Assembly (NCBI GenBank): GCA_949358305.1
Contig: OX442314.1
Location: 1,178,001 to 1,242,000 of the forward strand
DNA length: 64,000 nucleotides
Source: Strigamia acuminata
Taxonomy: Eukaryota
Direction: 5' to 3'
Below the pieces are notes generated by a model, which searched no databases, was not told the origin of the DNA, and worked only from the letters and a program-made list of their open reading frames with translations. Both the position numbers and the translations under genes were made by a program. Shown here in pieces: positions 1 through 34,330 of the stretch (the first letter of the stretch is position 1; every line of letters begins with the position of its first letter).

Positions 1-17
1 CATACCCAAAGCAAGAA

Positions 18-3119: not shown

Positions 3120-3124
3120 CATTC

Positions 3125-9100: not shown

Positions 9101-9719
9101 AGTGGCGGGTAAACCAAAGCGCTTGCTGTGCCGAACGCCACCCGTCAGGTCCGTCGAGCAAACGAAGCCGACACCGCCCGGGACCCCGCCGGCCCGAGCG
9201 GCGACAACAACGCAAGCAGTGATTCCCGCGGCCACCCAAAAGCCGAAGCCGGCACCGCCTCCACCAGACTATTATGGGCGAATCATCGACGAGTTTCCCC
9301 ATCTTTCGATGACGACGGCGACCAGGAGGTTTATCCTCGCGCAGCGGGACAAAGGCAAATCAGTCTTTATCTGGCTTCACAACCAGATACGGAAGACTAA
9401 AGACCTCATCTTCCACCAGAGGTTGCTGAGAGCCCACCGTGCGCCAGTGACGCCAGCGGAAGCCAATGCCATCCGGCATACGAACACCGGCTTCTCCGCC
9501 TACATCCCGAGCGTTTGGTTACACGAGAGGACGCGTGCCCCGCATGAGCCAGTTGACGGCCATGCATTATGTTTCATTACGGAGCATGAGGACCCCCGTG
9601 ATCGGTCCTCGGCGCTAGTAGGCGATCTACCCGCGCCACCCGGCACTCAACCGCCTGTCCCTGGAGTGAGTTACGCCCAGGTGACGGACTCAGTGTCGGG
9701 TCCCCCAGAAAAGAAGTAA
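3125..9719 (+). pseudogene. pol: pol of Gypsy 1 (PR, RT, RNase H, IN) with an in-frame ~650-aa C-terminal extension; disrupted by TGA at 5039-5041 and a MITE at 5079-5625
   Basis: LLDSGA, YLDD, HTDAS, ELE*LAVVWA; removing the MITE restores KFRDYLEYTKFVVHTDHQ; HHCC, SDNGPQF and GPY motifs. Confidence 0.9.
5079..5625. mobile_element. MITE, internal-deletion derivative of the PIF/Harbinger-superfamily element at 51688-55091
   Basis: ~60-bp TIRs AGTGAGTTTGCGGTTGCCAATT...; ATT TSD at 5076-5078 and 5626-5628; interior matches the left ~130 bp and the right-end region of the long element. Confidence 0.93.
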
Positions 9720-9755
9720 TCGCTCAGCCCCACGGTCTGAGCTCGGAGGGGGAGG

Positions 9756-10769
9756 TGTTGTGACCCGACTGGACCGGGGTCAACGAAGAGTTTCTCTCGT
9801 GACCTCGTTTCGGGTGTAAGGGGAGCCGCAAGCGCGTCTCCCTTCCCTCAGTGCATTGACATCTAGTCAATGGACAGGCGTCTGCCCTGAGGGAGTGGGG
9901 ATGGCTCGTCCACCCCACCATTGGGTGATTCCGGTCACCTGTCAACCCCGCTTTGTGCAAAGGAATGTGCCTTGCACTGAGCGGGCAGAACCAACACAAC
10001 CATCAAACGAGAAACACACGTAAACCCGTCGTCCTACAAGATCAGGCCCAAGTAAATATACTGGGATTGACCAAGGACAAAGGACAATTTACCGTGAGTA
10101 CGTTTGGTCAGTGTCAAACTCCGCAGAGTAACCTGCGAGATCAGATTACCACACTATTTTAGCACTCCAGCTAGAAATAGTAAAAACCACTCCAGTTTAG
10201 CGAGTTGTGCAGACAAACGGTCGCACAAGCCTAAACTGCAGTAAACCAACGACGAGTGTTCCCGCCGCTGTGTGACCGCCAGGAGCCAGAAGAGTCCGCC
10301 GCTGTGTGATCGCCGGACACCACACAAAAACCTAGACAACAGACTGAAGTAAGCCTTTTAACTAAGCATTCACTCGCGCCTGACCAGCGTGAGCCCGAAG
10401 GACCAGCCAGAGACGAGTCGAGGACGCCATATTGCCACGCCGGCCCAAGACGACACCACGTTGCCACAACGAGGACGCCATCTTGGACGCAAACGAGACA
10501 AAGGACGACCTCGCCGATTCCAGCCAGCTTTCATCTTACCTTTACCTTTCCATTCCCATCCCCCATTCCGATTTACCTTTTTCTTACCTTTCATATATAT
10601 ATATAAGATATATCTGTACATTGTCCCACAGAATAAATCTATATTATATTTTACCTTTTATATCTGTGTAATCATTTCTTTGGGTAAACCGCTCGAACAA
10701 AGCGGTAGTGAGTTAGTCGAATTAAGTAATCAACCCACGAGTCAGCAAGAGCGAAGTAGGGGCGCGACA
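9756..10769 (+). repeat. 3' LTR of Gypsy 1 (~1014 bp)
   Basis: Starts TGTTG directly after the PPT, ends GCGACA, AATAAA near 10632; partner LTR is not in the window. Confidence 0.7.
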
Positions 10770-14600: not shown

Positions 14601-15016
14601 AGAAGTCCCAGCAACAGTGCGCGCAGGGCTTCATGCCCATGGTCAACGAGCGTGGCCAAATCGCCTTCCAGCGACTCATGCAGCAGCAGCAAGCCCAAGC
14701 CCAACGGATGGCCGCCGCCAACGCCAATGCCAATGCCATTATCCGACCAGTACAACCTGCGCCGAGGAATCCGCCCAGGCCTCCGCCCAGACTCCCGCCC
14801 AGGGCCTTGCCCAGGACCATGCCCATGCTCTTGCCCAGACCCCCGCCGAGGGCCTTGCCAAGGCTTCCGCTCTGGCCTCTGCTCAGGCCTCCGCCCAGGA
14901 CCCTGCCCGTGCTCCCGCCCAGACCCCCACCGAGAACTCTGCTCAGGCCGGTTGCACCAGCGACACAAGCGGCGGACAACGCAGGTACTCGTCGTTTCGT
15001 TCGTGCGTCCAATTAA
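11644..15016 (+). CDS. RNF216: RNF216/TRIAD3-like RBR E3 ubiquitin ligase; predicted exons 11644-11934, 12002-12645, 12780-13012, 13470-13604, 13661-14096, 14154-14396, 14449-15016 (~849 aa; 3' end may splice further)
   Basis: All introns GT-AG and phase-consistent; CUE-like ELFPDADPEYL; RING1 CSCC...CTDGHLFCRSC...CLDPYC; IBR CPHC...CLNPEC...CRLCKEPNH; RING2 CPKC...GCNKMTCTCGQIFCYVC. Confidence 0.85.
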
Positions 15017-16189
15017 CGACAACAATTCAATTTGACAGGCAAAAAGAACAACCGGAAGAAGTGAGGCAACTCGTCGTCGTCGTCGTTCATTTTTCTCTTT
15101 GGCATCCGAGGACGTTGTGAACACAAACATTCTTCATTGTTTGTTCTTTGAAATCGTTGGATTGATTGTTTGATTGGTCGTCGTGTACATAAACAGAAAT
15201 TCTATTTTACTTCTCACTTTTATTTTAAATTCATAATAAATGACCGTGAACTCGATTTGGAATTTGACTTTATAATTATTTACATGATTAGCAATTCACA
15301 TCTTCTCAATTCAATTTGATTTCTGCAGAAGAAGAAGAAGAAGACTTTCAGAGCGATATTTCGTTCGATGCGTGGAACTCGTACATCGATTCAACAGCGT
15401 CCGAGTGCGAATGTAGCGACGAGCAAAGTTGGTGTCGCTCGGACGAGAATGTTTCGTACGCCTCCTGTCGCGTCGACGACTCCGACTCCGACTATAGCGA
15501 CAACAACTTTGTTCTCAATAAAATCAAATAGACAAATGTAAAACGATAAATGGATGGACTGCTTTATTTACTAGACCTTTACTAACAAAACAACCTGCAA
15601 GTAAAGAGAAGAAATCGAGCATCTTCACATTACATCATTAGACGTGTGTCGTATGTAGATCTGGGACGAACATATTTGTGGATTTTGTCTGAAATTAAAC
15701 AGTTTTGATGCAGAAATCAATATTTATCATTTATTTTCAACAAATGGAACTGTAAAGAAAATTTTGAATTTATTCAACAGATGGAGCTACTGTGGCAAAC
15801 CTGGTAGCAGTTTAATGAGTTTCAGCATTTCCTGCATCAAAAATTAAACATTAAATAATGGTGCTGCAAAATAAAAATGTTTGTTTGGTCAATAGCAAAT
15901 TGTTGTGACTTGTTTGATGTAGATGGATTAAATAAATGTTTGTTCACTTGTTATTGCAGTAACTGTAGTTGAAAACTATAACAAAAGCAGAAATTTAAGA
16001 AATAAAAATTTATAAGCATCAGGTTCAAAACTGCATTAACAGACAAAACCAAATAAAAATTTGTCACTATTAAATGGAAGCAAATACAACAAAATGCTTA
16101 AGAAGACAATTCGGCAACATGCATCGTCCAGCTGCCACTCTTCGAGTTTGTTGACAATGGAACCACGGAAGATTTTCTGAGAAAACTGC

Positions 16190-16606
16190 GGCAAAAAACT
16201 CCACACAGGAGCTGGACATAAGCGGCTCACGTGTCCTCAAGTTTCCAGAACAGACATAACCCCGAATATCTTCACCCTCAAATTGCTGCACAGTTTGACG
16301 AAATTCAAGAAGTTGCACAAGTTGTACGTCGACATGCGTTATGACTCGGACGTGAAAATAGCGGAGCAAAATGATATGTTTGATCGAGTTTGTTTGCGCG
16401 ATTTGCGGTTTGATAAATTGGTGAAATTTTCCCCATATGACAGCACAGATCGTTGAGTTAGTTCTGGTTATTTGTTTGAGTTGTTAGACATGTGTCCCAA
16501 ACTGGAGATTCTCGTTCTTTTGCAGTGCTCAGACTTCAGTAACAAAATTGCGCACGAGTTGGCCGACGTGTTGGACGTTCTTGTAAATCAGATTGCAGAA
16601 AGAAAC
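16190..16606 (+). pseudogene. LRR-like gene remnant (paralog of the 31364-32428 exon), target site of Gypsy 2
   Basis: PNIFTLKLLHSLTKFKKLHKLY...FDRVCLRDLRF matches PNIFTLKMLHTLTKFKQLRRLY...FDRVCVPDLRF; in-frame stop present. Confidence 0.8.
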
Positions 16607-17229
16607 TGTGACCGGCTGCCCGCTCAGTCCGCTCACTTGCCTGCAACACACGGCGCTTCCACGGCTTTCGCGCACCTCGTGTGTTTCTCGCGCGCACCTG
16701 TTGCGGACCCCCGCACCAGGTGGAGCTGATGGTCGTTGGCCCGGCCAATTGGGAACCGGAAGTGCCCCTTCCGGAAGTGGTGGGCCCCGCAGAGGCCCAA
16801 GAGAGTTCTCTAACTTCCAGCATGGCGAACGGTCGCTTCCACGATCGCTCTTCCACGCTGGCGGCAATGACGAATCCAGTTGGCGTAGCGACTCTGTCGC
16901 CCGCCGGGACTTGATAGTCCACGTTCCCCATGTCCGTCCTGCGTTCTCCGTGAACGTAGCGGCGACATGGCTAAACGGTATTCCGACCACGTGTGTCATG
17001 GCGGCCATTGGCCGCCGTGCCACGCGGTCTTGTTAGGGACGGCTGTTCGCAGCCGTCGCATTGGGAAATGCACTGGGAGACACCACATCATACCCCTAGA
17101 CATCAATAAAGCTTACCTTAAACTAAACTTGTGTCTCTTGTGTATTTCGGAGTGAATTCTATCGTGTGTGTTGTGTCCAGCGCCTCGTGGCTCTCCCCCG
17201 ACCACGTGGCGACCGTCCAAACACTCACA
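16607..17229 (+). repeat. 5' LTR of Gypsy 2
   Basis: TGTGA...TCACA, direct repeat of 26714-27336. Confidence 0.96.
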
Positions 17230-19378
17230 ATTGTGGGCCCGTCCTGGATCTTGAACTCTTTGCGATTTTTTTTTTCTATTTTCTGGTTGAGTTGATAACT
17301 CAACATTGAATGAAATTTTTCGATCAAAAAGGGGGAAATTTCTTTGGTCATGGTTGTGATAGGGAATCAGCAGGCGAAACGGCCGCTAATCGCTGATTTT
17401 GGACCCTAACTTGACAAAAATTGGTGGCTGTGCATGTCCAGCTTGCCTGGGTACTGGCAAGCCGGGACTTACATTGGCCACACTTTCCAACGGTCTTCTA
17501 TTCCTTTCTAGCTTAGCCTAAAAAACTGAGTGGTTGGGAGGGGAATACAATTCCAAACCTTCTTTATTATTTTTATTTCTTGGTGCGCAGCCCAAGTAAA
17601 AGTAATGGAACAGTCTGCAGCGTATTCAAACTCGATTAGTGGAGGAGGCGCGCTGGTGGCCACCAGCAACCCAATTCCCACGGGGGAGAAGCGGTCATAT
17701 TCTAATTGCCACGCTGCAATCGCTGGTTCCATTATGGGCCGGGCGAGGAGGCGATGTTGAACTGAGCTTTGAGTGACACCAAACTTCTTGTAGGACGTTT
17801 AGTCGCTTGGATGCAGGTTGCTAGCTTAGTGGTCGCTGGCGCGGGAACAGTCACGTGCGGTGAGTTGGCGTGTAGTTGGACCCGAGTAGCAGCGAAGTGT
17901 CCGCACACATGGGAAGACTGCCTTGATTTTTGTTGCAACTCATAATTTATGAGTTGCGTTGTGGCTGCTCGAGGCGCTCATCCGGGTTCACATCGGTCAT
18001 AATCCTACCCTGTCCCGTGTACTGGTTGGAAACAGTTGCAAGTTGGATACAACCCTAGAACTGTGGAAAATTGGGACACGGACAGCAGGGAGAGCTGCCG
18101 GAGGTACGGGGAAACCAATGGTGAAGTGCTCAACTGACACAGAGAGTTCGTTAGGGCGTAGGAACGATATCTGTGCATTCAGGTAGCTACCAACTTTGAA
18201 AAGAGATTGGGAATCTAGCCTGTAACTTTTGCTTCTGAATTTTATTCACCTTCATTGGATTTTCAAGTTGTTTCAGCTTGTTTTCGAGGACTGTGCTCGA
18301 ACCACAGTTTTGGACAATCTCTACAATTTGGAAGTTTGTTTTTATTTTACAACCTTTTTTTGTTTTTTCACTTTATCTTCGATTTTTTTTTCCCTATCTA
18401 TGATTTTCATGGTTCTTTGGGACGCCACACCGGACAGTAGACATCGTTGTAACTGAATACACGTGTTTCATGACCTGGAGGTAGACAGCACCAAATAGAA
18501 GGTGACATGGCTTTAAGTTGGCAGCTGAAGGGTGGGCCCCCAAAGCAACTAGGGACAGGAGATGCATTTCCTTCTTACTTTAAGTGCAGCTGACTGTCCC
18601 ACAAAAAACACCATTTCATTGGGATGAACAGACATCTCAGTGTAGGCACGTTTCTGTCGAAAGGCAGCCTCGTGCAGACTGGAATGAGTCTCCGAAAGGG
18701 GTGAGCGGGCGCGTTTGTTGGTCTCTTGGGGCAGAAGAAGAGATTGCAACAATATCCCCGTAATGTAAATATCTGAAAAAACCTTCTGCTAAAAATTGGA
18801 ACTTTTTGAGTGTATTTTATATTAAAAACACCCAGTATTTTGTGATTTTTTATTCATTTTCTTGTCTTTCTTCTCTGTTTTTCAATGTTGCTGTGCAATA
18901 AAGAAACGGTTTTGTCTGCGCGCTAGCGCGGTTAGCTTTCTATTGTTGGAAACGACGATGGAAATCTCTGGTTTGAAAATTTAGAAGTTCTTTGGACACG
19001 ATTTCGTACCTTTTTTGGGCACAAAAGTCATGTTCTCATGGAATCAGACCATTTTGATCTGGTTCTGAACTTCTAGTTCCAAACCGAAAAATCACTATTG
19101 TTTTTTCAAAAAGTGTTGTTTTTTCTGCAGAAATGTAGGAATTGGAACATTAAAACGGTCGAAATTTTGTTTTTATTTAAAAATCAAACATGGCGACTGG
19201 AAAGACAATAGAAAAACATGTGGAAATCTCGGAATTTTCGAGAATGATTGGAATTTCAAATTTCGACATTTTCTTGGAACTCTGGGAAATCAATTCTATG
19301 AATTAATCCAAATTTTCTACCAATGGGAAACCAGGGGGGGGAAGTGACATCACTAATCCCTCTCTCAGAAATGGCTAC

Positions 19379-21073
19379 TTGAGCCTAATCTCCTGTCTCC
19401 TCATTGGTCGTGACTTAATTCCACTTGTTCACTTTGCAAGCTGCGGTCCTGCTTTTGGTCACATTGTGTCAATGCCAGCGACCAGAACTGGTAAGACCAC
19501 GTGGGACTCTCCTGCACCTAATTCTTCCACACCCGCAACGGATTCAGACTTGAACGACTCGGATAATAATTCGATTGCTTCTTCAAACGACAATATGTCA
19601 GTCCCTAAAGTTAAATTGTTGGATCAAGCGATGCTTGAAACAACTTGCAACGTCTTTAATCTAGTTATTGATGATATGACGACCTACGAAGTGTGGGAAG
19701 ACACGCTTCTGAAAGTAGCCGATCACTTGGTGGAACTCCAAGACAAATCGGATAGCACTATGCGTCAATTAACGCAAACGCGCACGGAATTCGGTGATAT
19801 TAGCGACCGGTTAACTCATGCTTTGCAGGAGTTAGACTCTGCGAAATTATCGAATGAAAGCTTGTTGAAGATGATAGCTAGTCAAAAGGCTATCGTCGAC
19901 AGCGTGGTGGCGGCCGGACAGTCGAATTTGAGGGCACAATCTGCAATCTCAAACACGATTTCTTCCACCGCAACAACACCAGTTGCTGGAGCCGCTCCAG
20001 GCGCAACGCCTACGACTGGTAATCCACTTTTCCTAGCTTGGGGAGACAAGTTTCTCCACAAGACTGACCAGGCTATGCCTGCTCCCAGGCCAATGGATGA
20101 AGTAGAGCTAAGTAAACGAGTCAAATCCATTGGAATTGAAGCGTTTGCAGGGGACAAGACGAAAGCTAAATCTTTCCTTATTGATTTAAAACGTTCTCTA
20201 CGCTTTGCTTTGCCTTATCTAAACCAAGTGCTCGCTGAGCATTTGTTTAAGTTTTTCCGAGGAGATGCGGCCACATGGTTCTCTTCTCATGCCAAAACGA
20301 ATTGGGAGGAATTCGAACATGAATTTATCACCCATTTTCGTCCGAGCGATGCGCTGCTTTTAGCAGAAATTGCTAAAACACAGCAACTGTCTCATGAGTC
20401 CGCCACCCAAGTGGTGATAAGACTCGAGAAGTTATATGCTCAATTGACTATTCCTGTGCACGAGAGCCAGCAAATTCAAAAAGTGCTGGCAATTCTGCGC
20501 CCAGCGGCCAAGAACATGGTCGCAAATGCCATTAATTTGGAGAACACTTGGGCGTCGCTCAGGAAAGCTTGCATTGCTACGGAGGCCGCGATTATAAATC
20601 AGGAAACTGTGACAAATGCAGCAATCATCGAGGCGGCAAAAACAGAAACTGTTACGCCAATTCAAAAAACCAACCAGCAAATGGTAACAATACCAAATGC
20701 TGCGGGTGGAGATAAACCGAAATTTGTTCCGTTTGGATTGAGAAATCCAAACAATAGAACACTGTTCCCTGCGCCTAAAAATGCTGCGATAGCAGCAACA
20801 AAGGCCGCAGAAGGCAACGAGAAGGCGCTAGTCCCGAGCAATAGGCTCAAAGACTATGCGACAAAACCAAGAGTTGGCGGTTGCTGGGGCTGCGGTGGCG
20901 CACACTTTGAACGGGATTGCCCCCTCAAGGTGGAAGCCGCCAAAGCAGCAATGGAAACAATCGCCGCTGCCCAACACAGCATGATGCAGGCTATGCTTGC
21001 AGCCAACGAGTTTGGTGGCTGGCCTGACATGTCGGGAAACGAGGAGTCGCAGTCGACAGAAACTCCCGAGTAA
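19379..21073 (+). CDS. gag: Gag of Gypsy 2 (likely start ATG 19472)
   Basis: Coiled-coil N-region, GDAATWF...WEEFEHEF capsid-like motif, CWGCGGAHFERDC knuckle. Confidence 0.9.
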   Translation: MSLISCLLIGRDLIPLVHFASCGPAFGHIVSMPATRTGKTTWDSPAPNSSTPATDSDLNDSDNNSIASSNDNMSVPKVKLLDQAMLETTCNVFNLVIDDMTTYEVWEDTLLKVADHLVELQDKSDSTMRQLTQTRTEFGDISDRLTHALQELDSAKLSNESLLKMIASQKAIVDSVVAAGQSNLRAQSAISNTISSTATTPVAGAAPGATPTTGNPLFLAWGDKFLHKTDQAMPAPRPMDEVELSKRVKSIGIEAFAGDKTKAKSFLIDLKRSLRFALPYLNQVLAEHLFKFFRGDAATWFSSHAKTNWEEFEHEFITHFRPSDALLLAEIAKTQQLSHESATQVVIRLEKLYAQLTIPVHESQQIQKVLAILRPAAKNMVANAINLENTWASLRKACIATEAAIINQETVTNAAIIEAAKTETVTPIQKTNQQMVTIPNAAGGDKPKFVPFGLRNPNNRTLFPAPKNAAIAATKAAEGNEKALVPSNRLKDYATKPRVGGCWGCGGAHFERDCPLKVEAAKAAMETIAAAQHSMMQAMLAANEFGGWPDMSGNEESQSTETPE

Positions 21074-21088
21074 CTGACGACTGCGCTC
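21034..21088 (+). promoter_or_regulatory. -1 frameshift signal G_GGA_AAC plus stem-loop
   Basis: Heptamer 21034-21040 in the gag frame; pol frame opens after TGA 21025-21027; CGCAGTCG pairs with CGACTGCG downstream. Confidence 0.8.
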
Positions 21089-21096
21089 TTACTATT

Positions 21097-24000
21097 GTGT
21101 TGATTCCAATGGAAGAAGACATGGAGGATGCTCTATTTGATGACATTTCATCCACAGAACCAGATCCTCGCGTGGTTTTTTCCACAGAACCTGAAATCGA
21201 CCATGTAAACGTTGCATTGAAGACAGGAAAGAGTATTACTCCCCTGCCTTACATCAAGGCAACACTAAACGATTTAAAGGTCACCGCTCTGATGGATACT
21301 GGGGCAACCCACAGGTACATCAGCGGGGGAATGCTTAAAAAGCTAAACCTCTTGCACTTTATGACTCCATTTTTAGAAAATCGAGTTGTATACACTGGCG
21401 ATAGGCCAACACGTCCAATCGGGACAATCACGTTGCCACTTAAGTGGCGAGGTGGTGAGCTTCCGGTGACATTTACTGTTCTTCCATCAGCTTCCAAATT
21501 TATACTATTAGGTTGCTCTTGGATTATCGAAAATAAGATTGTTCTCAATCTAACAGAGCGAGAATATTTCCATATTGATTTTCCACATGACACATTTCCC
21601 TTCGACGACCCACCATCGCCTGAAGAACTTGGAAATGCAATAATGGATCGATGGGATGCTTTGGTTGCAGAATCAAAGTCACCTGTTATCTCTACGGCTG
21701 ATTTAAGCCAGAAACTGCTAGCAAAAAGCAAATTGTTGCCAAGACAGAGATTTCAAATCTCAACTCTTGTAAAAAAATACAAACATGTGTTTAGTGACAA
21801 AGCTGGCTGCCACCCCACATTGGAACATCCAATTCCGACTGGAGATGCACCTTCATTTCGATGCAAAGATCGACCAATGAATCCCAAGAAAGCTGAGATT
21901 TATCGCGAATTGGTTGCTGAATTGCTGAGAGATGGTTGGGCTGAACCTTGCGAGGGGAGTTACAAAAACCCCCCCGTGATTGTAGCAAAGAAAGATGGAG
22001 GTTACCGCCTCTGTATTGATTTTCGCTGGCTAAATAAGATCACAATTAAGGACGTCTATCAGATGCCCTCAATTTCTATGATTTTGGCCTGTTTAGGTGG
22101 GAAAAAGTTCTTTTCTACTCTTGATTTAACTAAAGGTTACTACCAAATAAAGCTTAAACCAAGTGATAAGAGGAAGACTGCCTTTTCTACCTCTGATGGA
22201 ACATACCAGTTTACTCGTATGCCTTTCGGACTGTGCAATGCACCCAGTGCGTTTCAGAGAATGATGGATCAAGTTCTTGGAACTGCACAACACAAGTGGG
22301 CACTCGCTTACCTCGATGATATTATCATTTTTAGCGACTCATTTGAGGAACACCTTCAACATCTAGATGACATATTGTCAAAACTAGATAAAAACAAACT
22401 GACAGCTAGTCCGTCAAAGTCATTTCTTTGCCCAGAAGAATTAAATTTTCTTGGTTTCACAATGTCAAATGGGAGCTATAGCCCAAACAACGACAAAGTG
22501 GAGGCAATTTTAAAATATCCAACCCCTTCCAGTATAAAGCAGCTTCAGCGTTTTATTGGAATGGTAGGTTTCTATGCTGCTCTAATTCCAAAATTGAGTA
22601 TTACTCAAAAACCATTCTTTGCCCTTCTAAAGAAAGATACAAAATGGGAATGGTCTGAAGAATGCAATGTTGCCTTCGAATATTTGAAAAATCAACTTGC
22701 AAAAGGAATTATGCTGCCTCTGCCTGATTTCGCACGCAACTTTACCATCCATACAGATGCTAGTGGCGGCGGGCTCGGAGCTGTCCTCATGCAGATTGAT
22801 GACCATGGTGCTTTAAGACCAGTTGCATACGCCAGCAGAACTCTGCAAGGCGCGGAAAACAACTACAGCACCACCGATTTGGAATGTTTAGCTGTGGTTT
22901 GGGCTGTTGATAAGTTCAAACCATACATTGAATATTCTGAATACCAAGTTGAGACTGACCATCACGCTCTGAGATTTCTCATGACAATGGAAAATCCAGC
23001 TGGAAGACTGGCTAGGTGGGCAATGAAATTGCAAAATGAAAATTTCACCATCAAGTACCGGAAAGGCACCGACAATCAAGTCGCAGATGCCTTATCCAGA
23101 GTTTCTCTTGATAATGGCAATCCATTAGAAGGAAAAGCAACTCTAACAGAGATTATAGAACCTGTTGCTCTAGCTTATCTCACAAATGAGATCGATGACT
23201 CAATGTCATTCGAGAACATTATATTGCAGCAACGTGCAGATAAACATCTTTCAAAACTAATCGAATGGTTAGAATTGGATGATGGACAACCTCGACCAGA
23301 ACTTCCTAAGTTCTTGGAAGACAGGCAGTACGACTGCACACTCACTAGAAAAGGAATGCTTATTATTTATGCACCTTTTAAAACTGATTTCTTTGTAGAG
23401 GAAGAAGATTTGGGAATTGGATTTAAAATCTTTATTCCCCCGTCTCTGCAACTCGCAGCCCTCCAACTAATTCATGATCACCCAATGGCTGGTCACGGAG
23501 GAGTTGAAGTAACTTTGGAGCGATTGAAAAGAATTTATTTCTGGCCAAATATGCAAAAAGAAGTTAAACTTCATGTAGCTAGCTGCAATCGCTGCCAACG
23601 TTGTAAACCGATTCAGAGGAAACCAAAAGGATTAATGGTCCCAACCTCTCCAAAAATTGGTCGTTTTGAGAAGATAGGAATTGACCTAATTGGTCCACTG
23701 CCTAGAACTCCAAACAGAAATCGCTTCATTCTGGTTGTGGTGGATTATGCCACTGGCTGGATGGAAGCTACGCCGCTAAGATCTGCTAAAATGACTGCAA
23801 TTGCACCAATTTTAAAACGATTTTTTAGCTGTCATGGGTGCCCTCGTTTCATGTTGAGCGATAATGGCCCCCAATTCATTTCTGACGTTTATCAGACTCT
23901 CTGTGACGATGCTGGGGTTGTCCCAATAAAAACGACACCTTATCATCCCCAGACTAATCTGACTGAGCGTGTAAACAGAAATATCAAGATCATGCTTCGA

Positions 24001-24807
24001 ATCTTTACTTTTGAGCACGATCACTGGGACAGATGCATTGACCAAATAAATTTTGCTTTGCACTCTGCTCCAAATGTGTCTACCGGCTTTACACCAGCAA
24101 TGCTAACGTATGGCAGAGAAATTCGACCGTTTTGGGACAATCGAGACGTGTCTTATGACACCCCTTTCGACCCAAATAGGCCCTACGACGCTGTCAGAAT
24201 GCTAGTCGCTAGACACCGTACTCTGATTGCTGCAGCTCTAAAAAATAAGAGTCTAGCCCAAGCAAAACAGAAAACTTATTACGATCGACACCGCAGCGAC
24301 GATAAATTCGAAGTTGGAGATTTGGTTTTACTAAAGACCCACCCATTGTCCAATGCTGCTAATCGATATGCTGCGTCCCTTGAGGATCGCTTTGAAGGAC
24401 CATATGTAATTACTAAAGTCTTTAATAACAATGCGTATGCCCTTGCAACACCAATCACTTTGCAAGCGAGAGGCACATACAATATTGTAAAACTCAGGAG
24501 ATTCGTCCCCTCAGAAGAAAAGGCTCAATGGCCCATTTTAGATGAGGAAGATGAAGAAGTTCTTGAGAACCGACCTGTGAACACTGGAACAGCAACAATC
24601 TTGCCACCACCAGTGCGACCAACAGAATCTGGTATCGCAACCAAGTTGCCAACACCAGTAGAACTTTTGGGAAATCCAAAAAAGAAAAAGGCTTTGCCTC
24701 TGCCACGAGTGGATTCACACAAAACCACGGCAGCACAGTCAAAACCGAATTCGGATTCGAAAAGACCATCGAGAAATCATATTTTGCCGATACGATACAG
24801 AGATTGA
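21097..24807 (+). CDS. pol: Pol of Gypsy 2 (PR-RT-RH-IN), intact, reached by -1 frameshift
   Basis: LMDTGA, YLDD, HTDAS, ETDH, HHCC, SDNGPQF, GPY. Confidence 0.95.
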   Translation: MLIPMEEDMEDALFDDISSTEPDPRVVFSTEPEIDHVNVALKTGKSITPLPYIKATLNDLKVTALMDTGATHRYISGGMLKKLNLLHFMTPFLENRVVYTGDRPTRPIGTITLPLKWRGGELPVTFTVLPSASKFILLGCSWIIENKIVLNLTEREYFHIDFPHDTFPFDDPPSPEELGNAIMDRWDALVAESKSPVISTADLSQKLLAKSKLLPRQRFQISTLVKKYKHVFSDKAGCHPTLEHPIPTGDAPSFRCKDRPMNPKKAEIYRELVAELLRDGWAEPCEGSYKNPPVIVAKKDGGYRLCIDFRWLNKITIKDVYQMPSISMILACLGGKKFFSTLDLTKGYYQIKLKPSDKRKTAFSTSDGTYQFTRMPFGLCNAPSAFQRMMDQVLGTAQHKWALAYLDDIIIFSDSFEEHLQHLDDILSKLDKNKLTASPSKSFLCPEELNFLGFTMSNGSYSPNNDKVEAILKYPTPSSIKQLQRFIGMVGFYAALIPKLSITQKPFFALLKKDTKWEWSEECNVAFEYLKNQLAKGIMLPLPDFARNFTIHTDASGGGLGAVLMQIDDHGALRPVAYASRTLQGAENNYSTTDLECLAVVWAVDKFKPYIEYSEYQVETDHHALRFLMTMENPAGRLARWAMKLQNENFTIKYRKGTDNQVADALSRVSLDNGNPLEGKATLTEIIEPVALAYLTNEIDDSMSFENIILQQRADKHLSKLIEWLELDDGQPRPELPKFLEDRQYDCTLTRKGMLIIYAPFKTDFFVEEEDLGIGFKIFIPPSLQLAALQLIHDHPMAGHGGVEVTLERLKRIYFWPNMQKEVKLHVASCNRCQRCKPIQRKPKGLMVPTSPKIGRFEKIGIDLIGPLPRTPNRNRFILVVVDYATGWMEATPLRSAKMTAIAPILKRFFSCHGCPRFMLSDNGPQFISDVYQTLCDDAGVVPIKTTPYHPQTNLTERVNRNIKIMLRIFTFEHDHWDRCIDQINFALHSAPNVSTGFTPAMLTYGREIRPFWDNRDVSYDTPFDPNRPYDAVRMLVARHRTLIAAALKNKSLAQAKQKTYYDRHRSDDKFEVGDLVLLKTHPLSNAANRYAASLEDRFEGPYVITKVFNNNAYALATPITLQARGTYNIVKLRRFVPSEEKAQWPILDEEDEEVLENRPVNTGTATILPPPVRPTESGIATKLPTPVELLGNPKKKKALPLPRVDSHKTTAAQSKPNSDSKRPSRNHILPIRYRD

Positions 24808-25050
24808 CCACTAGGTGGACACCTCCGAATTCGAAATTCCTACGGACCAATCACGAGACGACAACATAGCGTTTCCGGTTTCGTACACGTTGCGTAAAAG
24901 ACGTTATTCTGCGGTACTTAAGAAGGAATCTTGGCAACATCAAATCATTCTCGTTCCAAGCAAGTGACTGTCCAGTTCGTCTCCTCCGCACGAATCCCGT
25001 CGATTTCCTGTTCCGTATATTTGATTTGATCAATTCATTTTTATTTTCCA

Positions 25051-26229
25051 ATGGAAGAATATCCAGCCGGCACTCGAGTCGTATGCCCAGTGTGTTTAGG
25101 AAGTTGCGTAACCGAACGCAACAACGGCGCGTTAACTCCGTGCGAAAACTGTCTTGGCGAAGGACATGTGGATCGCAACGAGCCTTTGGAACTCTGGTTC
25201 CGTCATTTTATGACGGTATCCGGACGCCCGATTCCAGTAAGAAACCGCGTGGTCGGTTGGATGCGAGTGCGTTCTCGTAGAGAAAGAAAGAAGTCAGAAA
25301 AGGCGTTTTACGCCAATTCCGGCGCCTCGACTTCGGCCCAATCGCCACGAACGGGATCAAATCCCAATTCCACGTCAAAAGCTGACGATACAACGACTGG
25401 ACGAGTTTCAAAAAGAGCGGTTTTACGCTTGAAACTAGCCGAATTTGCGGCGAATCGTTCGCAAACGTCGCAGACACCGAAAACTTCAACTTCGAGTTCG
25501 ACTAAAATCCTTCGACCACCGAAGAAAGTGACTGTAAAACAGTCATGTTCGACGGTGACAGAATCGAAAGCCAAACCACGCTCTGAGATTTCGGCGGCCC
25601 TCGTCGCAATGCGACTAAAGATCCGCGAACGAAATCCAAAGATGGCGGAAGAGACAGTAAACGCTTTAGCCAAAGAACGTCTCAAGTGGGAGAAGGTCGC
25701 TGATTATAAACAGCGACAAGCCGCCCTCGCCGTGAGCCAACGAGTGACCGCTACGGTTACGTCATGTACGCAAGCGGCGAAGAAATCAATCCCACCACCG
25801 TCGTGTACGATCGTCTCAAACGATACGAGCATGCCGACGGAATTCGTTTGTTCCTCGACTGTTTTACAGTCAATTCCAAATCCAGCGGTCATTATGCCGC
25901 CGATATTCGGCGAGAGACCAACGGACATTTCATTTCAGAATCTCCAGACCGCTCCGATGTCAATCGAAAATGGCGCGGCCGCCACCGAGACCGTCGCCGA
26001 AGCATCGAGTGCGATGGAAACCGAAGAATCGCATACGCCTCCGCCGCCTCTTCCACCACAATCGAAGGCAGAGAAGGCGGAGAAGAAGGCGGAAAAGAAA
26101 ACCAGATCCGCCGCGAAGCGAGAGCAAAAGACGCGTCGTAACCTGGCGAAGGAGCTGCCGTCGATAAAAGAGAACGAACGTGACGACGACGAGACGCCAC
26201 CGACGCCCGGCAAGACGCTACAGATATAG
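25051..26229 (+). CDS. ORF3 of Gypsy 2, unknown function; N-terminal CxxCxGx...CxxCxGxG zinc motif, basic and low-complexity remainder
   Basis: 392-aa ATG-initiated ORF between pol and PPT; no signal peptide or TM segment visible. Confidence 0.75.
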   Translation: MEEYPAGTRVVCPVCLGSCVTERNNGALTPCENCLGEGHVDRNEPLELWFRHFMTVSGRPIPVRNRVVGWMRVRSRRERKKSEKAFYANSGASTSAQSPRTGSNPNSTSKADDTTTGRVSKRAVLRLKLAEFAANRSQTSQTPKTSTSSSTKILRPPKKVTVKQSCSTVTESKAKPRSEISAALVAMRLKIRERNPKMAEETVNALAKERLKWEKVADYKQRQAALAVSQRVTATVTSCTQAAKKSIPPPSCTIVSNDTSMPTEFVCSSTVLQSIPNPAVIMPPIFGERPTDISFQNLQTAPMSIENGAAATETVAEASSAMETEESHTPPPPLPPQSKAEKAEKKAEKKTRSAAKREQKTRRNLAKELPSIKENERDDDETPPTPGKTLQI

Positions 26230-26713
26230 AAGAAGTGGCCAGTTTTTCTCAAAACTTTATAATGCCAATAGTGTTGATAGTTTTTACATTTTTTAAATGG
26301 TTTTTTCTCTATCAAAGTAATAATAATAGTCCTAACTTTTATTTTCAAAGCTACAAATGCATTTACTTACCTATTAGAATTAAATTAACTTAGATTTTAA
26401 TATTTTTCAAAGAATTTTTTATTCAAATGTGTTAAAAATTTACAAGTGTTATTTACAGTATTTATATTTCACGAATTGTATTTTGTCTTCATCCTGGGGG
26501 TAAGTGTGCGTTGTTTTCTCTGGTGTATTTTTCCCGATGTTACCTGCTGGTGATCCGTGGTCCAGTTGTCATCAACTCATCCGGTCATCTGGTTATCTGC
26601 AAAAAAGAAAAGTAATGATTAATTTTTAATTATGAAATTAACTTTCAAACAACCACTTTCGTGATTGTGTTGAGGTACCCCTCTCAGTACTTACCTTTTT
26701 TAGGGGGGGGAGA

Positions 26714-27336
26714 TGTGACCGGCTGCCCGCTCAGTCCGCTCACTTGCCTGCAACACACGGCGCTTCCACGGCTTTCGCGCACCTCGTGTGTTTCTCGCGC
26801 GCACCTGTTGCGGACCCCCGCACCAGGTGGAGCTGATGGTCGTTGGCCCGGCCAATTGGGAACCGGAAGTGCCCCTTCCGGAAGTGGTGGGCCCCGCAGA
26901 GGCCCAAGAGAGTTCTCTAACTTCCAGCATGGCGAACGGTCGCTTCCACGATCGCTCTTCCACGCTGGCGGCAATGACGAATCCAGTTGGCGTAGCGACT
27001 CTGTCGCCCGCCGGGACTTGATAGTCCACGTTCCCCATGTCCGTCCTGCGTTCTCCGTGAACGTAGCGGCGACATGGCTAAACGGTATTCCGACCACGTG
27101 TGTCATGGCGGCCATTGGCCGCCGTGCCACGCGGTCTTGTTAGGGACGGCTGTTCGCAGCCGTCGCATTGGGAAATGCACTGGGAGACACCACATCATAC
27201 CCCTAGACATCAATAAAGCTTACCTTAAACTAAACTTGTGTCTCTTGTGTATTTCGGAGTGAATTCTATCGTGTGTGTTGTGTCCAGCGCCTCGTGGCTC
27301 TCCCCCGACCACGTGGCGACCGTCCAAACACTCACA
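26714..27336 (+). repeat. 3' LTR of Gypsy 2
   Basis: Direct repeat of 16607-17229. Confidence 0.96.
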
Positions 27337-27718
27337 AAACTTTATCACTTTTCAGCTTGATCAGCGTCATCACTTCCTTCAAGTTACATACAAGTAGATT
27401 ACAGAGCAATTCCATTAGCAATTCATGTCTCTTCTTGAGTAAACAAAGCCGATGTTAAACAATTAAAATTGCTATACCAATCGCCATTTTTGGTCGTTTC
27501 TTTTTTATTGTTTCGTTCGGTGTCTGGTTTTTCTTATGCCGAAGCAAAATGGCTGATTTGGACGACCGGACGGGTCATTCCCCGCTTATTGTTTGTTTAA
27601 CATTTCGAGGTTTGTTTATCTGTTGCTGCAGTAACTATTGTTGGAAATTAAAAAAATCAAAATATCTAAACGAATCAAACCAAAATTTTCCGTCGGAATA
27701 TCACCAGCGGGATCTAAA

Positions 27719-29109
27719 ATGCAGACATTAGCAGACATGGCGATTGAAATTCTTTTTAGGTGTCTCATTCAATGGAACGTAGAAGATAATTTTGACGTTA
27801 AAATGAAAGAGACGATGGGATTAATCGCTTATTTCGATGCACTACGTAAGCGACACACGGATGTGTTAAATTTATTTCGTAATTAAAATTGTCAATACAC
27901 ACGGTTCTGTTTAGCCCATACTGTTCGTGACAAAGTGTTGAACAGCTTCGATGATGATCGGTTTTATCACAGTTATCGCGGGTTAGAGGCGTGGGACATT
28001 GCTCCATTTTTATACGAGCAGCAGAAAAGTCTTAAGTTGCGACTTACAAGTCGGAATTTTGATTTGGAATTTTTATTTAAAGTTTGTGGCTACAAATTAA
28101 AAGTAAGTATTAAGATTGTTATATCGCGATTCGTTCTAATGAGATTCGACTGTACAATTTTACAACTCGTCATTGCCGTGTGCGACATCCTTACAAAGAT
28201 TTGTTTACAATTCTTTTAATTGTATCTACCGCATAGAATCTGACGAGGTTAGAATTACCTTACCTGAACAATTCTCCACTGACGGCCAACTTCGTCGAAC
28301 AATTCCGCCACATCACGCCAAATCTACGCACACTACATTTGTTCGGTAAAATTGAAGACGCCGCGATCGTGTACATCGTCCAGCTGCCGCTCGTCGAACT
28401 CGCTGTTTATGACTCGGCGAACTTGGAGTGGATAACTAAAGTGTGCGAAGTAGACTCCGCTCTCAGGAAAACGTTGCGAGTGTTCCGGTTGATGATGGGC
28501 TACTTCCATTGGTACAATTTTGAATTGACCATTCCCAAAATTCTGCGCAGTTTGTCGAGATTTAAGGAGTTGCGCTCCTTGCACCTCATGATTTTGGATT
28601 CGGTCTCGCACATAATGGAGAGAAACGAGCTGTTTTATCGCGATCGTTTGCGCGGTTTGCGTTTTGATAGTTTGCTGGAATTTTCCCTGTTCGATTACGA
28701 CGGTCACTGGAATTCTTACGGTTTATTTTTCATGGTGTTGGATGTGTGTCCGAATTTGGAGAAACTCGTTCTTGCTAATATCCACGGTTTTAGCGATAAA
28801 ATTGCGGGTGAGTTGGCTCAAATGATGGCGAAGAGGAAACTCAAACATCTGGAAATTAGTGAGTGCAATTTTTTGGGGCCGGCCGCCATTGAGGAATTGA
28901 TGAAAATCGAGTGTCTGGTTAAGTTGGAGGTGACATTACGAGTTGATGAGATCAGAAGAGAGCCTTTCGACGTTGTAAAGATGCAGCAAACGGCTGAAAG
29001 ACACGGTGTCAATTTGCAGCTCGGGTTTCTTCCTTGGGACGTGGAGTACAATCGGTACAAGAAGCTCAACGAGTTTAAACTTCACGATTTTTTTTGTAGT
29101 GAAAAATAA
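27719..29109 (+). CDS. LRR-like protein, family copy A (spliced; first intron boundaries uncertain; last exon ~28238-29109)
   Basis: MQTLADMAIEILFR; FDLEFLFKVCGYKLK|gtaag; cysteine-containing LRR-like CPNLEKLVL, KLKHLEISECNFL. Confidence 0.65.
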
Positions 29110-29645
29110 AAAGTAAATATCACATGTCGAACAAGTGTCGTATGTAGATCCGGAACAAACCTTTTTATGAATTTTCTGAGCAATCAAATAGAAATCAATA
29201 TTTCTCATATTTATTTTCAACAAATGGAACTCTAAAGAAATTTTGCATTTATTCAACAGGTGGAGCCACTGTGGCATACCTGGTGGCAGTTGAATTAAAC
29301 GTTCAAAAATGATGCTGCAAAATGGACGACGTTCAAATGAAAAACATTGTTTCGATAAACTAAGTAAGTGAAACCCGGATTTGTGGTGAGAATAAATCAT
29401 TTCCTCACTCGACAGTAATAATTGTTGTTTTTGGTTGTTCTTGCTGTTTGTTGTTATTTTTCTATCTGTTGTAGCTGTTGCGTATCTACTTAGTTACAAA
29501 TTTATAGTATTGTTGCTACTTAGCAACCAAAAGAATGTAGACATAAATAAAGATATTGCTGAGCTGTACGAGCAGCGGCTCTTGTTATTTTCGGAATTTA
29601 AATCTGCCGAGTTTATAACCATTGAAGGAAATTTAGAAAATCAAA

Positions 29646-32428
29646 ATGGTGGTGAAATCATTATCAAACTTGGCTATTAAAATTCTTTTCCGGGCTATTG
29701 TTCAACGGCCGGTTGAAGAAATGGAGGACGATCGAATGAGAACCACGGTGGAATTAATGAATTACTTCAATCAAGTCATTGCTGAATGGGATCGCGGAAA
29801 TTTGATTGTAAATTTTTTTTTTTATTTGATAAATTTGTTGTTCCGGTTTTTCAGTACTGAATCTTGTCAAAGTCCAGCCGTGGATAAACTGGGTGAGTGT
29901 CACTCGGATTTGTGCATTGATTTCGCAATTATTAATGTGAAATTATTTGATTTAGCTCTTCGTAAAGAAATGCTAGAGAAGTTGAATGACGAGGAGTTTT
30001 GGGACTCAAGTGTTCGCGAGCCAGACGCGTGGGATGTTGCTCTATTTGTACACGAAGAGCAGACAGAACTGCAGTTGTGGTATATGAGTCCAAATTTTGA
30101 TTTGGAATTTTTGTTTCGAGTTTGTGGCTACAAGTTGAAAGTGAGTGGACAAAGTGAACTAAATCAGCATACAAAAATTTTATTTTCAAGCAGAAAATGC
30201 ACTCTCAAGCAAAAAAAAATGCATTTTCAAGCAAAATAATACATTTTCAAGCAAAACAATGCATTTTCAAGCAAAATAATGCATTTTCAATAAAAAATAC
30301 TGCATTTTTAACCAAAATAATGCATTTTCAAGCAAATTAATGCATTTTCAAGCGAAATAATGCATTTTTAAGCAAAATAAAGCATTTTCAAACAAAATAA
30401 TGCATTTTTAAGCAAAATAATGCATTTTTAAGCAAAATAATGTATTCTCAAGCAGAAATGTGCATGTAGAAGTGCAAACGTTGCACTTCAAGCTGCAAAA
30501 ATGGCATCTTGAGCAGGGGCGGATTTACATACGGGCTAATGGGGCTTGAGTCCCGGGCCCCCAAATTCTAGGGGGCCCCCAGGACGCAGGGCCATGTAGC
30601 AAAAAAAAAAAAAAAAGAAGGTCGCTAAAAAACAAAAAAGAAGGTTGCTATTAAAATTTGGCCGAGGATATTCTTACGTACGTACGTGAGAATAACGTTT
30701 GCCCGACGAGCCGCTATTCTTACGTACATACGTACGTACGTACGAAAGGGCAAAGATGAAACCCACCAGCATATTTGCCCCTCAAAAAAAAACAAAATGA
30801 ATGCATGAAACAAACACAAAATGAATGCATGAAACAAATAAAAGGAACAGGAACGCCAAACAAAATTCTTGCAGAACAATGCGCGACACGACACGTGTAG
30901 GTGGTATACGTAAGAATAATGATCCCCCCTGGCGGCCCGCAATGTACGTAGGAATAGCCATACGTTATTCTTACGTACGTACGTACGAATATACAGTTTT
31001 TCAGGGGCCGAGAATGGGCTTCCCTGCAATTTACCGTTTGTACGTAAGAATAGCCACGGCGTTAAAATTTTCGATAAAGGGGCCCCGAAAAAACCTCAAG
31101 CCCCGGGCCCCCGAAAAGCTAGATCCGCCCCTGATCTTGAGGTGTAAAAATAGCATCTTTCCGTGTGGAAGTAGCATCTTAATGTGCAGAACTTGCATTT
31201 TCTAAAAACTGCTTTATTGGATAAAATAATATTTTGTACATGAAAAATTTGCATGCACACTAATGTAAAATCCAAAAGACATGCACTTACAACATGCTTT
31301 TGTTATGTGCGGCATTCTTAAAAAAAATTGTTTTAATTCTACTAATTGCATTTATCCGCACAGAATCTAACGGTGTTAGAACTGCCCGAAAATTTTACGC
31401 TGACAGCCAATGCCTGCAAACAAATGTGTCAGTGTTTACCATATTTAGAGAAACTAGATTTGTCTCACATCTTTGTTGAAGACGACGCGGCGACATACAT
31501 CACCCAGATGCCACTCGTCGAACTTCACGCTTGGGAAAGCACCGAAGATTTTGTGCGCAAACTGTGCGCAGAACGCTCCACACTGAGCAAAACGTTGGAA
31601 GTGTTCATGTTGAGCCGTGAACTTTCAATGGACTGCTACTGCTTGATATTAAACACGATGAAATACATCGAACACTTGGACACTAACGATTCCAGGTGGC
31701 TCAAAGCGCTGCTGCCGATCGGCGCGCCACCGCAGCGATACAATCTGACAAGATTGGTGTTTCAGGGCGACGCCATTCAGGAAGAGCTGGAAATTGCCGT
31801 GCTCACTTGTCCGAAAGTTTACGATATTGAAATTGCTCCGAATATTTTCACCTTAAAAATGCTGCACACACTGACGAAATTCAAGCAGTTGCGCAGGTTG
31901 TACTTCAACATGTTTAACGACTCGGACGTGATAATGGCGGAGGAAAATGACTCGTTCGATCGAGTTTGTGTGCCCGATTTGCGGTTTAAGAATTTGGTGC
32001 AATTTACCCTGTCCGATCCCGACGATCGTTGGATTACATCTGGTTTTTGGATCGAGTTGTTGGGCTTGTTTCCCGAATTGGAGGAATTCTCTTTTTTGAC
32101 TTGCCCCGGATTCAGTAACAAAACTGCGCAAGAGTTGGCCGCCGTGATGGCGAAGAAAGTCAAACGTTTGGAATTTCGAGAATGCGATTTGCTGGGGCCG
32201 CCGGGGGTTGAAGAGCTGTTAAAAATCGATTCTCTGGTGGAGTTGAGTGTGAGTTTGCACATTAATGACACAAGAAAACAACATTTTGATGTTGGTGCGT
32301 TGCAGCTAATGGCTGAAGAACACGGCGTTAACTTAAAGTTATATTTACGAGACCCGTTCGATGTGATAGTTGCAAATATGATGGCTGAACATGATGGTGG
32401 CAATGATGCCGACAATGATGGCGACTAA
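29646..32428 (+). CDS. LRR-like protein, family copy B (last exon 31364-32428)
   Basis: MVVKSLSNLAIKILFR; FDLEFLFRVCGYKLK|gtgag at ~30141; acceptor ccgcacag|AATCTAACG; LPYLEKLDLS, FPELEEFSF. Confidence 0.7.
30185..30460. repeat. Intronic ~20-bp minisatellite (AATGCATTTTCAAGCAAAAT)n
   Basis: About 13 degenerate units read directly. Confidence 0.9.
30514..31133. mobile_element. Non-autonomous hAT-like MITE
   Basis: TIRs CAGGGGCGGAT / ATCCGCCCCTG; 8-bp TSD ATCTTGAG at 30506-30513 and 31134-31141; internal TACGTACG motifs. Confidence 0.9.
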
Positions 32429-33129
32429 CGAGTTGTCAGAGGCTGCGTGTCTACATTAATTCGATTTGTTTGTATTCAAAAATTAAATGTCAATATGCCA
32501 TGTCGAACAAGTGTCGTATGTTGATCTGGAACGAACGTTTTTGTATGGATTTTGTCTGAAATTAAATAGTTTTGATGCAGAAATCAACATTTATCATTTA
32601 TTTTCAACAAATGGAACTATAAAGATAATTTTGCATTTATTCAACAGATGGAGCCACTGTGGCAAACCTGGTGGCAGTTTAATGAGTTTCAGCATTTTCT
32701 GCATCAGAAATTAAACATTCCATAATGGTGCTGCAAAATAAAAATGTTTGTTGGATATAATAGACCCTTTGTTCACCCGTTGTTGCAGTAACTATTTTTG
32801 AAAATTATAACAGAAGCAGAAATTTAGAAAATAAAAATTTCTAAGCATCAAGTTCAGAAACTACAAAAAGAGACGAAACCAAGCAAAAAAATTTAAATAT
32901 TAAATTTGTCTGGAATTTATTGCGCAAGAATCTAACACGCAACTAGTCACTCTCTTGTCTGGAGTTGTACTGTGTCGGTTGTGGCCGTTTGACCACAGTC
33001 CGACACCTTGCAGAATCTTCTGTCCTGTTTAGCTGTAATTTAGGACGCAGCTCCAACAATCCGCCATTGCAGCTGCTGAGGATCATCCTCGTAATGTCGC
33101 CAGTGCCAACTGGTGGCAGCCAGTTGGTC

Positions 33130-33260
33130 GCAGACATTAACAGATGTGGCTATTCAAATTTGTATTAGGTGTTTGATTAAATGCAATGTTGAAGAAATGG
33201 ACGACGTTCAAATGAAATACTAAGTGCAATTAATTGCTTCTTTCGATAAACTTCGTAAGT
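33130..33260 (+). pseudogene. LRR-family first-exon remnant lacking its start codon
   Basis: QTLTDVAIQICIRCLIKCNVEEMDDVQMK resembles the copy A N-terminus. Confidence 0.65.
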
Positions 33261-33659
33261 GAAACATTCCTCGCTCGACAGTAATGACAGCGATGACAGC
33301 AGCGATGATAGCGATATTAGTGACTAAAGGAGTTGTCAGATTTAGGCTGTGTCTGCATTAAATCGATTTTATTTGTATTCAGATATAAAGAGTTAATATG
33401 GCATGTCAATAATTGTTGTGTTTGGTTGTTCTTGCTGTTTGTTGTTATTTTTCTACTTAATTTCGTTTATTGTTCTTTCGTTTATCTGTTATGTTGTAGC
33501 TGTTGTGTATCTACGTTACAAATTTATAGTATTGTTGCTACTCAGCAACCAAAACAATGTAGCCAAAATGAACACATCGCTGAGCTGTTCGAGCAGCGGC
33601 TCTTGTTATTTTCGGAATTTAAATCTGCCGAGTTGATGAAGAAAATTTAGAAAATTAAA

Positions 33660-34080
33660 ATGGAGCCGCAGTTTTTGTCAGACATGGCTAATAAAAGTCT
33701 TTATCGGTGTATTATTCAACGGCCGGTTGATGAAATCGAGGACGATCGAATGAAAACCACATTGGAATTAATGGATTACTTCGATAAAATCATTGCTGAG
33801 TGAGATAGCAAAAATTTCATTGTAATTATTTTTTTTTTATTTTATAAATTTTTTATCCAGGTTCAGTATTTTATGTCAAAGACCAGCCGAGAAGAAACTG
33901 CGTAAAAGAATGCTGGTGAGGTTGTGTTACAAGAAGTTTTGGGACGAAAGTGTTCGCGATCCAGACGCGTGGGATGTTGCTCTGTTTGTACACGAAGAGC
34001 AACATGAACTACTGTTGTGGCCTATGAGTCCAAAGTTTGATTTGGAATTTTTGTTTCGAGTTTGTGGCCACAAGTTGAAA
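33660..34080 (+). pseudogene. LRR-family copy C, 5' exons only
   Basis: MEPQFLSDMANKSLYR...; DAWDVALFVHEEQ...FLFRVCGHKLK|gtgag; no LRR exon found downstream on either side of the BEL insertion. Confidence 0.7.
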
Positions 34081-34330
34081 GTGAGTGGACAAAAAGTACT
34101 AAATCCACACAAAATTTATTTCTGCTCGATAAAAACAACAAACATTACATAAAATAAGTACAATTATAAACGAGCAAAAAAATGCACTAAAACATGTATT
34201 TTTGTTATCAAGCCAAATAAAAAGGAAGAACAACAAAATGTGATTAAACATGAAGAAAAACGACAAAATGTGATTAAACTTAAGAGAAATGGCAATATGT
34301 GATTCAGATCAAGACAAATGGAAAAATTTA

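Follow-up and report, generated by a model that had tools for sequence, protein, structure and literature searches.

A young Ty3/Gypsy element with an intact third open reading frame

The window, by which we mean the whole 64-kb stretch of DNA analysed here, contains a retrotransposon that interrupts a host LRR-family coding stretch (Table 1). We assign the element to the Ty3/Gypsy group based on its LTRs with TG...CA ends, its target duplication and polypurine tract, and a gag gene followed by a pol gene with the domain order PR-RT-RH-IN. The two LTRs are the same at 623 of 623 nucleotides and a 4-bp target duplication flanks the element (16603-16606 and 27337-27340), so the insertion is young, in agreement with the preliminary description of this DNA. 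The primer-binding site, we presume, may resemble tRNA-Pro. The single zinc knuckle of Gag (20880-20920) has the spacing CX2CX3HX4C in place of the usual CX2CX4HX4C. Among the pol relatives listed, which include arachnid records, identity over the RT-RNase H region reaches at most 47%. Our pol-based scan further recovered 2 distant loci (33% and 39%), and ORF3-like sequence was absent at both of them. The more distant of these Gypsy loci (33% in pol) has a third ORF of its own (positions 7128-10538 of that locus; 1,137 codons) with a hydrophobic leader and a Cys-rich start, which appears Env-like by eye.

In the stretch that separates pol from the 3' LTR, at the position where an env gene would be expected, lies the open reading frame that we refer to as ORF3. 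The frame is intact from its ATG to its TAG and encodes 392 amino acids, as previously claimed. An open frame of this length was found in none of 2,000 simulated sequences with the same dinucleotide make-up, the longest being 324 codons.

Table 1. Features of the element and its surroundings (positions within the window).
Feature	Position	Strand	Remarks
Host RBR-type (RNF216-like) ligase gene	11848-15016	+	Flanks element
Tandem LRR gene family	15600-34100		Flanks element
Ty3/Gypsy retrotransposon carrying ORF3	16607-27336		10.7 kb
5' LTR	16607-17229	+	623 nt, TG...CA ends
Primer-binding site, then 2.2-kb leader	17230-19471	+	29 ATGs in leader
Leader knuckle, CxxCxGxG type	17435-17458	+	Short frame without ATG
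gag	19472-21073	+	Retrotrans_gag; intact; pol overlap in -1 frame
Predicted splice donor	19491-19496	+	19 nt after gag ATG, phase 1
pol	21028-24807	+	Intact; protease, RT, RNase H, integrase, SH3-type C-terminus
CpG-rich block	24745-26220	.	pol end, spacer and ORF3; change-point fit; sharp edges
AG-free stretch and weak candidate acceptor	24976-25057	+	80 nt, 71% pyrimidine; AG 25056-25057
ORF3	25051-26229	+	ATG to TAG, 392 aa, between pol and 3' LTR, intact
Paired Cys knuckles	25084-25164	+	aa 12-38, with one C4 zinc site predicted
Arg/Lys-rich patch	25234-25302	+	aa 62-84; candidate nucleic-acid-binding/nuclear-localisation segment, from composition
Predicted helical segment	25579-25764	+	aa 177-238; pLDDT 78, pTM 0.31
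Acidic/Pro-rich then Lys-rich C-terminal tail	25951-26226	+	Bipartite-NLS-like pattern aa 345-363; TP sites
Antisense splice-like cluster	26217-26694	-	Donors 26694, 26370; acceptors 26596, 26217
Polypurine tract and 3' LTR	26703-27336	+	3' LTR itself 26714-27336

A zinc-knuckle protein with no detectable relatives

The ORF3 protein begins with an acidic stretch (M-E at its start; signal peptide assessed by a hydropathy proxy alone) that leads into two pairs of cysteines at aa 12-15 and aa 31-34. The preliminary description saw a DnaJ-type zinc motif here, which holds for the second knuckle, a full CxxCxGxG, but not for the first, which ends in C rather than G (CxxCxGxC). As judged from the protein sequence, the label fits the ORF3 motif alone and does not indicate family membership. 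The paired knuckle motif did not appear in any of 200,000 shuffled versions of the protein, while the loose pattern CxxC...CxxC was found in 36 of 50,000. All of the segments previously listed for the protein (Arg/Lys-rich, Ser/Thr-rich, helical and Pro-rich) were found, with the Ser/Thr-rich stretches linking the Arg/Lys patch to the helical segment, over which alignment to the diverged copies described below is retained. Patterns resembling nuclear export signals (NES) are of the loose kind only. The protein lacks a membrane helix, as had been claimed, given that its hydropathy over 19 residues reaches a maximum of 1.03 and its GRAVY is -0.71.

We searched for relatives of ORF3: 1.84 billion representative proteins gave none at E<=0.001, and a set of 7,987 candidates that were scored gave none at E<=0.01. 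PDB sequences returned chance-level rows alone, and no related locus was found in metagenome contigs or viral contigs. The Pfam family PF00684 (DnaJ central zinc region) scored 15-18.9 bits against a cut-off of 32.7, and PHROGs and NCBIfam likewise gave nothing beyond sub-cut-off matches to the knuckles. In the ESM Atlas the best value was 0.78 for aa 1-95, with no usable match for the whole protein. Structure prediction, which had been suggested as a check, supplied the helical segment but no informative fold match: the single-sequence model of aa 1-90 is poor (pLDDT 59) and fold searches with it were uninformative, and the model of aa 168-240 forms two helices whose matches are generic coiled coils with Z under 6. 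A possible likeness of aa 175-225 to an HMG box found no backing from Pfam or folds, and ORF3 is unrelated to the long extension that follows the integrase in a neighbouring Gypsy element. At the RNA level, no Rfam family matches the element and the fold of the spacer between pol and ORF3 (24808-25050) is not unusual (z +1.0). Finally, our literature search, made in a library with few subscription journals, turned up no account of DnaJ-type knuckles in an ORF3 carried by a retrotransposon.

ORF3 is under purifying constraint

More relevant to the question of function, we compared ORF3 among copies of the element in three public sequencing runs from two studies, one of which may be the window's own source. 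Contigs from these runs were aligned to positions 24820-26420 and comprised both near-identical and diverged copies. The variants listed (40 of 147) included 36 inside ORF3, which we scored singly, and of these 21 were synonymous, 15 were non-synonymous and none was a stop. With an expected synonymous share of 27-29%, this corresponds to p-values of 6e-5 to 2e-4 and an omega of about 0.26-0.29 for the listed variants. Among the six reading frames, the sense frame has the highest synonymous count for the same variants; split by eye, the synonymous share is 6 of 8 for near copies and 15 of 28 for diverged ones. For pol, 22 of 31 listed variants were synonymous (40 of 1,146 rows listed). Purifying constraint is thus weaker on ORF3 than on pol.

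Among the 12 insertions and deletions listed out of 28, one lies in ORF3 (a 3-nt insertion), one just upstream and 10 in the 3' UTR. Of the 7 distinct pieces from diverged copies, five can be aligned gap-free over 115-277 nt with 80-84% identity. One of the other two has 9 gap letters and the second, found in two runs, has 16, and one loose end lies about ten letters out of register; the 16-gap piece and this loose end may come from dead or frameshifted old copies. The preliminary description had proposed that a dN/dS of about 1, frequent stops or a match to an Env or host gene would speak against its reading. The listed variants give an omega of about 0.3 and no stops, and the databases searched gave no such match. 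We are highly confident that selection maintains ORF3 as an accessory gene, whatever its kind.

Deep pol contigs with 85-90% identity have no equally deep ORF3 counterpart at 80% likeness, where depth is not to be equated with the number of copies; the 15 joints listed, out of 63, include none across ORF3. This gap in depth could reflect a sister lineage without ORF3 or one with a more diverged ORF3. We also observed that part of the spacer (24858-24970) is kept at 88% in a diverged copy compared with 81% at the start of ORF3. A cis-element or a short exon may lie in this non-coding part. A diverged contig that covers the element from 24858 on, present in runs from both studies, ends with about 30 letters that we placed by eye in the leader at about 17460-17489. 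Since this contig appears to join the leader at about 17489 to 24858, a copy appears to exist that keeps ORF3 without gag-pol. We considered and rejected a retro-copied spliced RNA as the origin of this joint, the corresponding sites in the window scoring -2.4 and -5.6; given these poor splice scores and a 3-nt repeat shared at the joint, deletion at the DNA level fits better.

CpG content of ORF3 and its surroundings

ORF3 had been described as CpG-richer than pol, and the difference is pronounced, with an observed/expected CpG ratio of 1.65 for ORF3 and 0.71 for pol. Amino-acid content does not account for this excess since recoding ORF3, which has 135 CpG, with the codon usage of pol gives a median of 48 and a maximum of 64. 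Measured against the 64-kb window (mean 1.13) and five host exon stretches (0.90-1.48), pol is as much of an outlier as ORF3. A change-point fit delimits a CpG-rich block that takes in the end of pol and the spacer as well as ORF3, and this block was likely acquired as one module. Its CpG content is more host-like than that of pol, which suggests that the ORF3 module was acquired separately without indicating a donor.

Predicted routes of expression

To ask how ORF3 might be expressed, we scored splice sites throughout the element. The matrices used were approximations and the tests were made post hoc; all sites named here are predictions. Strong splice-like sites are found in the leader (donor 17860; acceptors 17512 and 19131) and at the start of gag, where the donor at 19491 ranks third among 438 GT sites of the internal region by these approximate, post hoc scores. 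In 13 of 5,000 simulations, again post hoc, a donor of such strength and phase turned up close to the ATG. At codon 3 of ORF3 there is a candidate acceptor predicted to be in phase with the gag donor. The AG-free stretch before it is the third longest among 545 AG sites, while the acceptor itself, by the same approximate matrices, scores 5.0 (rank 52 of 545) compared with 7.3-9.9 for candidate acceptors of the neighbouring host gene. The 500 nt upstream of ORF3 contain zero ATG. There are parallels for such an arrangement, as env of the idefix subclade is reported to be spliced from within gag (PMC12992720) and rotifer ORF3s are described as typically expressed via spliced messages (PMC5408684).

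The leader also contains a short frame with a knuckle of its own that shares with the first ORF3 knuckle the pattern C-P-x-C-L-G, five residues being common to both. In simulated leaders CxxCxGxG was found in 35 of 3,000 and CPxCLG in 4 of 3,000 (post hoc). This leader knuckle lies near the joining point (about 17489) of the copy that lacks gag-pol.

The top-scoring splice-like sites of the whole element lie on the antisense strand of the 3' UTR, and both counts were reached in none of 3,000 simulations. These predicted sites suggest a spliced antisense RNA that would run from the 3' LTR into ORF3. Antisense transcription in a comparable region is reported for plant elements and HTLV (PMC7264820, PMC11963269). 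An antisense frame of 143 codons (26684-27115, minus strand) starts in the LTR, and donor 26694 lies just before its stop.

A possible role in exporting unspliced RNA

Third ORFs other than env are already recognised, with examples such as CERV, the rotifer ORF3s and the plant aORFs (PMC10309623, PMC5408684, PMC7264820, PMC11963269) as well as further cases (PMC11952523, PMC13524379), so the ORF3 described here does not constitute a new class. The closest comparison is with CERV of Cer1, a C. elegans Ty3/Gypsy element, which is described as a non-Env, nuclear, Cys-finger ORF at the same position (PMC10309623). The earlier reading of ORF3 as a nuclear or RNA-binding accessory protein is compatible with its anatomy, though with CERV already published it is less new than the preliminary description implied. 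Because of this common position, ORF3's small zinc site and its NLS-like basic segments, and the splice-site-rich leader, we tentatively favour the reading, itself open to considerable doubt, that ORF3 is a CERV/Rev-like nuclear factor whose zinc knuckle and arginine-rich region would bind the element's unspliced RNA and help to export it. The function of CERV was shown for Cer1, and we liken ORF3 to it by analogy rather than as a member of a CERV family. The protein database searches with ORF3 brought up no likeness to CERV, and the Cys spacing differs: CERV, in the description that served for this comparison, has Cys 193, 195, 200 and 269 together with H, M and G-protein-like domains (PMC10309623), whereas ORF3 has an N-terminal CxxC-x15-CxxC and looks mostly unstructured. 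A counterpart to the CERV-type spliced mRNA with exons in the gag frame would be a message spliced at the predicted in-phase donor and acceptor.

Under the CERV/Rev-like reading, the ORF3 module would have come from a source with a different CpG content. The protein would be made from a subgenomic RNA, perhaps one in which the six opening codons of gag (donor 19491) are fused with codon 3 of ORF3 (acceptor 25058), perhaps one with translation from ORF3's own ATG. Its four cysteines would hold one zinc, the knuckle and the adjoining Arg-rich patch may contact RNA, and the long helix might oligomerise or recruit a host factor. The target would be the full-length RNA, which keeps the 2.2-kb splice-site-rich leader. 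We regard as quite unlikely the wider proposal of an HTLV-like complex retrotransposon, with a sense regulator spliced from gag around the DnaJ-type knuckle pair, an opposing spliced antisense RNA from the 3' LTR into ORF3, a knuckle remnant in the leader and regulator copies without gag-pol.

Tax belongs with Rev and Tat in an accessory-gene design that combines a small zinc site with an Arg-rich patch. In the retroviral Rev and Tat, as in ORF3, a small zinc site beside an Arg-rich patch is encoded by a 3'-located accessory gene, and the same holds for the carlavirus cysteine-rich proteins (CRP; PMC8742542); CRP, Rev, Tat and Tax have no homology to ORF3 and differ from it in order and size, so the resemblance is one of design alone. 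The rotifer ORF3s and plant aORFs are likewise family-specific, lie in the interval from pol to the 3' LTR and form an apparent module, as far as they are described (PMC5408684, PMC7264820, PMC11963269). Rotifer ORF3s encode proteins of DEDDy, GDSL, TM or coiled-coil type (PMC5408684) whereas the present ORF3 has zinc knuckles, and the plant aORFs are mostly antisense and encode TRP28 proteins whereas the present ORF3 is in sense (PMC7264820, PMC11963269).

Weighing against the CERV/Rev-like role is the fact that the zinc site, basic patch, helix and acidic/Pro tail would suit a transcription factor equally well. This order of segments is typical of transcription factors. ORF3 could thus be a transactivator in the manner of Tat, Tax or Tas, with the zinc/basic region on the LTR or chromatin, the helix dimerising and the acidic/Pro tail activating, and the plant Retand aORFs, for which DNA binding and transcription regulation are proposed, offer a parallel (PMC11963269). 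Against this, family and fold searches gave no match of ORF3 to a DNA-binding family or fold, and CERV, a characterised Gypsy analogue, is reported to be dispensable for transcription (PMC10309623). We consider such a transactivator a possibility to be taken seriously, though on balance a doubtful one.

The faster divergence of ORF3 relative to pol would be expected of a protein in conflict, and ORF3 might therefore act against piRNA, siRNA or chromatin silencing. The carlavirus cysteine-rich proteins, described as silencing suppressors with an Arg-rich NLS and a zinc finger, are a parallel in design (PMC8742542), and the antisense splice sites suggest that the element gives rise to antisense RNA. 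An anti-silencing role is nevertheless unlikely in our view, as homology to any suppressor was not found, omega is well under 1 and positive selection is not evident in the listed variants.

It is improbable that ORF3 derives from part of a host or DNA-virus gene that the element captured and retained for work in the cytoplasm or the particle, such as assembly or a chaperone cofactor function. Its CpG content is nearer to host exons than that of pol, the edges of the block are sharp, the DnaJ zinc region gives weak matches, and rotifer LTR elements are reported to have taken up enzymes as their ORF3 (PMC5408684). However, no donor was found in the 1.84 billion representatives, the viral contigs or the metagenome contigs. 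The likeness to the DnaJ zinc repeat (PF00684) consists of the CxxCxGxG-type knuckles, of which DnaJ has four and ORF3 two, enough for one zinc and scoring under the family cut-off, and ORF3 has no J-domain, no HPD and no DnaJ C-terminal domain as a DnaJ chaperone would.

A neutral passenger, open merely because the element is young, is a very remote prospect. The identical LTRs, the low complexity of much of the protein and the perhaps partly frameshifted old copies would fit such a reading, but the synonymous excess with zero stops, the gap-free alignments at 80-84% and the placement of the listed indels mostly in the UTR make it unlikely.

Finally, a degenerate envelope or fusogen gene is the most improbable of all, since its place at the env position, a single RxxR-type site and three patterns for N-glycosylation, which are common by chance, are set against a 392-aa protein without a membrane helix or an Env family or fold match. 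This agrees with the preliminary description, which saw no TM helix in ORF3 and noted that Env proteins need a TM anchor; in errantivirus and retroviral Envs this anchor is C-terminal. More specifically, ORF3 has no Pfam or sequence match to an F- or gB-type Env ectodomain and is basic and of low complexity. The sORF2/FAST-like fusogens are described as proteins of 63-107 aa, far below ORF3 in length, that have a transmembrane helix as well as an N-myristoylation motif (PMC11952523), whereas ORF3 lacks such a helix and begins M-E.

Functional tests are on record for few of the accessory genes that animal Ty3/Gypsy elements carry, for example CERV and sORF2. That non-env third ORFs are recognised and recurring makes the present case only moderately surprising. 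As an orphan zinc-knuckle protein under selection in a family with a recent insertion, ORF3 nevertheless offers a handle on the export of unspliced RNA, LTR activation or resistance to silencing, and if it is CERV-like it would add one more independent origin of Rev-like export.

Other features of the window

For a host gene beside the element the nearest match is a protein from a centipede (71%), so the host is probably an arthropod. The second Gypsy element (3-9719, plus strand) encodes a 1,000-aa Gag and has a pol split by an insertion at about 5060-5630; past its integrase the frame stays open for about 770 aa more, for which Pfam gives no match at E<=0.01. An intact Copia element has a CpG-rich frame of 283 codons (38998-39849, plus strand) located after its 5' LTR and before gag, also without a Pfam match. 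A Harbinger-type transposase at 52133-53983 faces a second, unmatched ORF. Further along, at 56860-60874, a pair of LTRs, identical over the 300 nt shown, flanks a 900-aa gag-only frame and looks like a young non-autonomous element.
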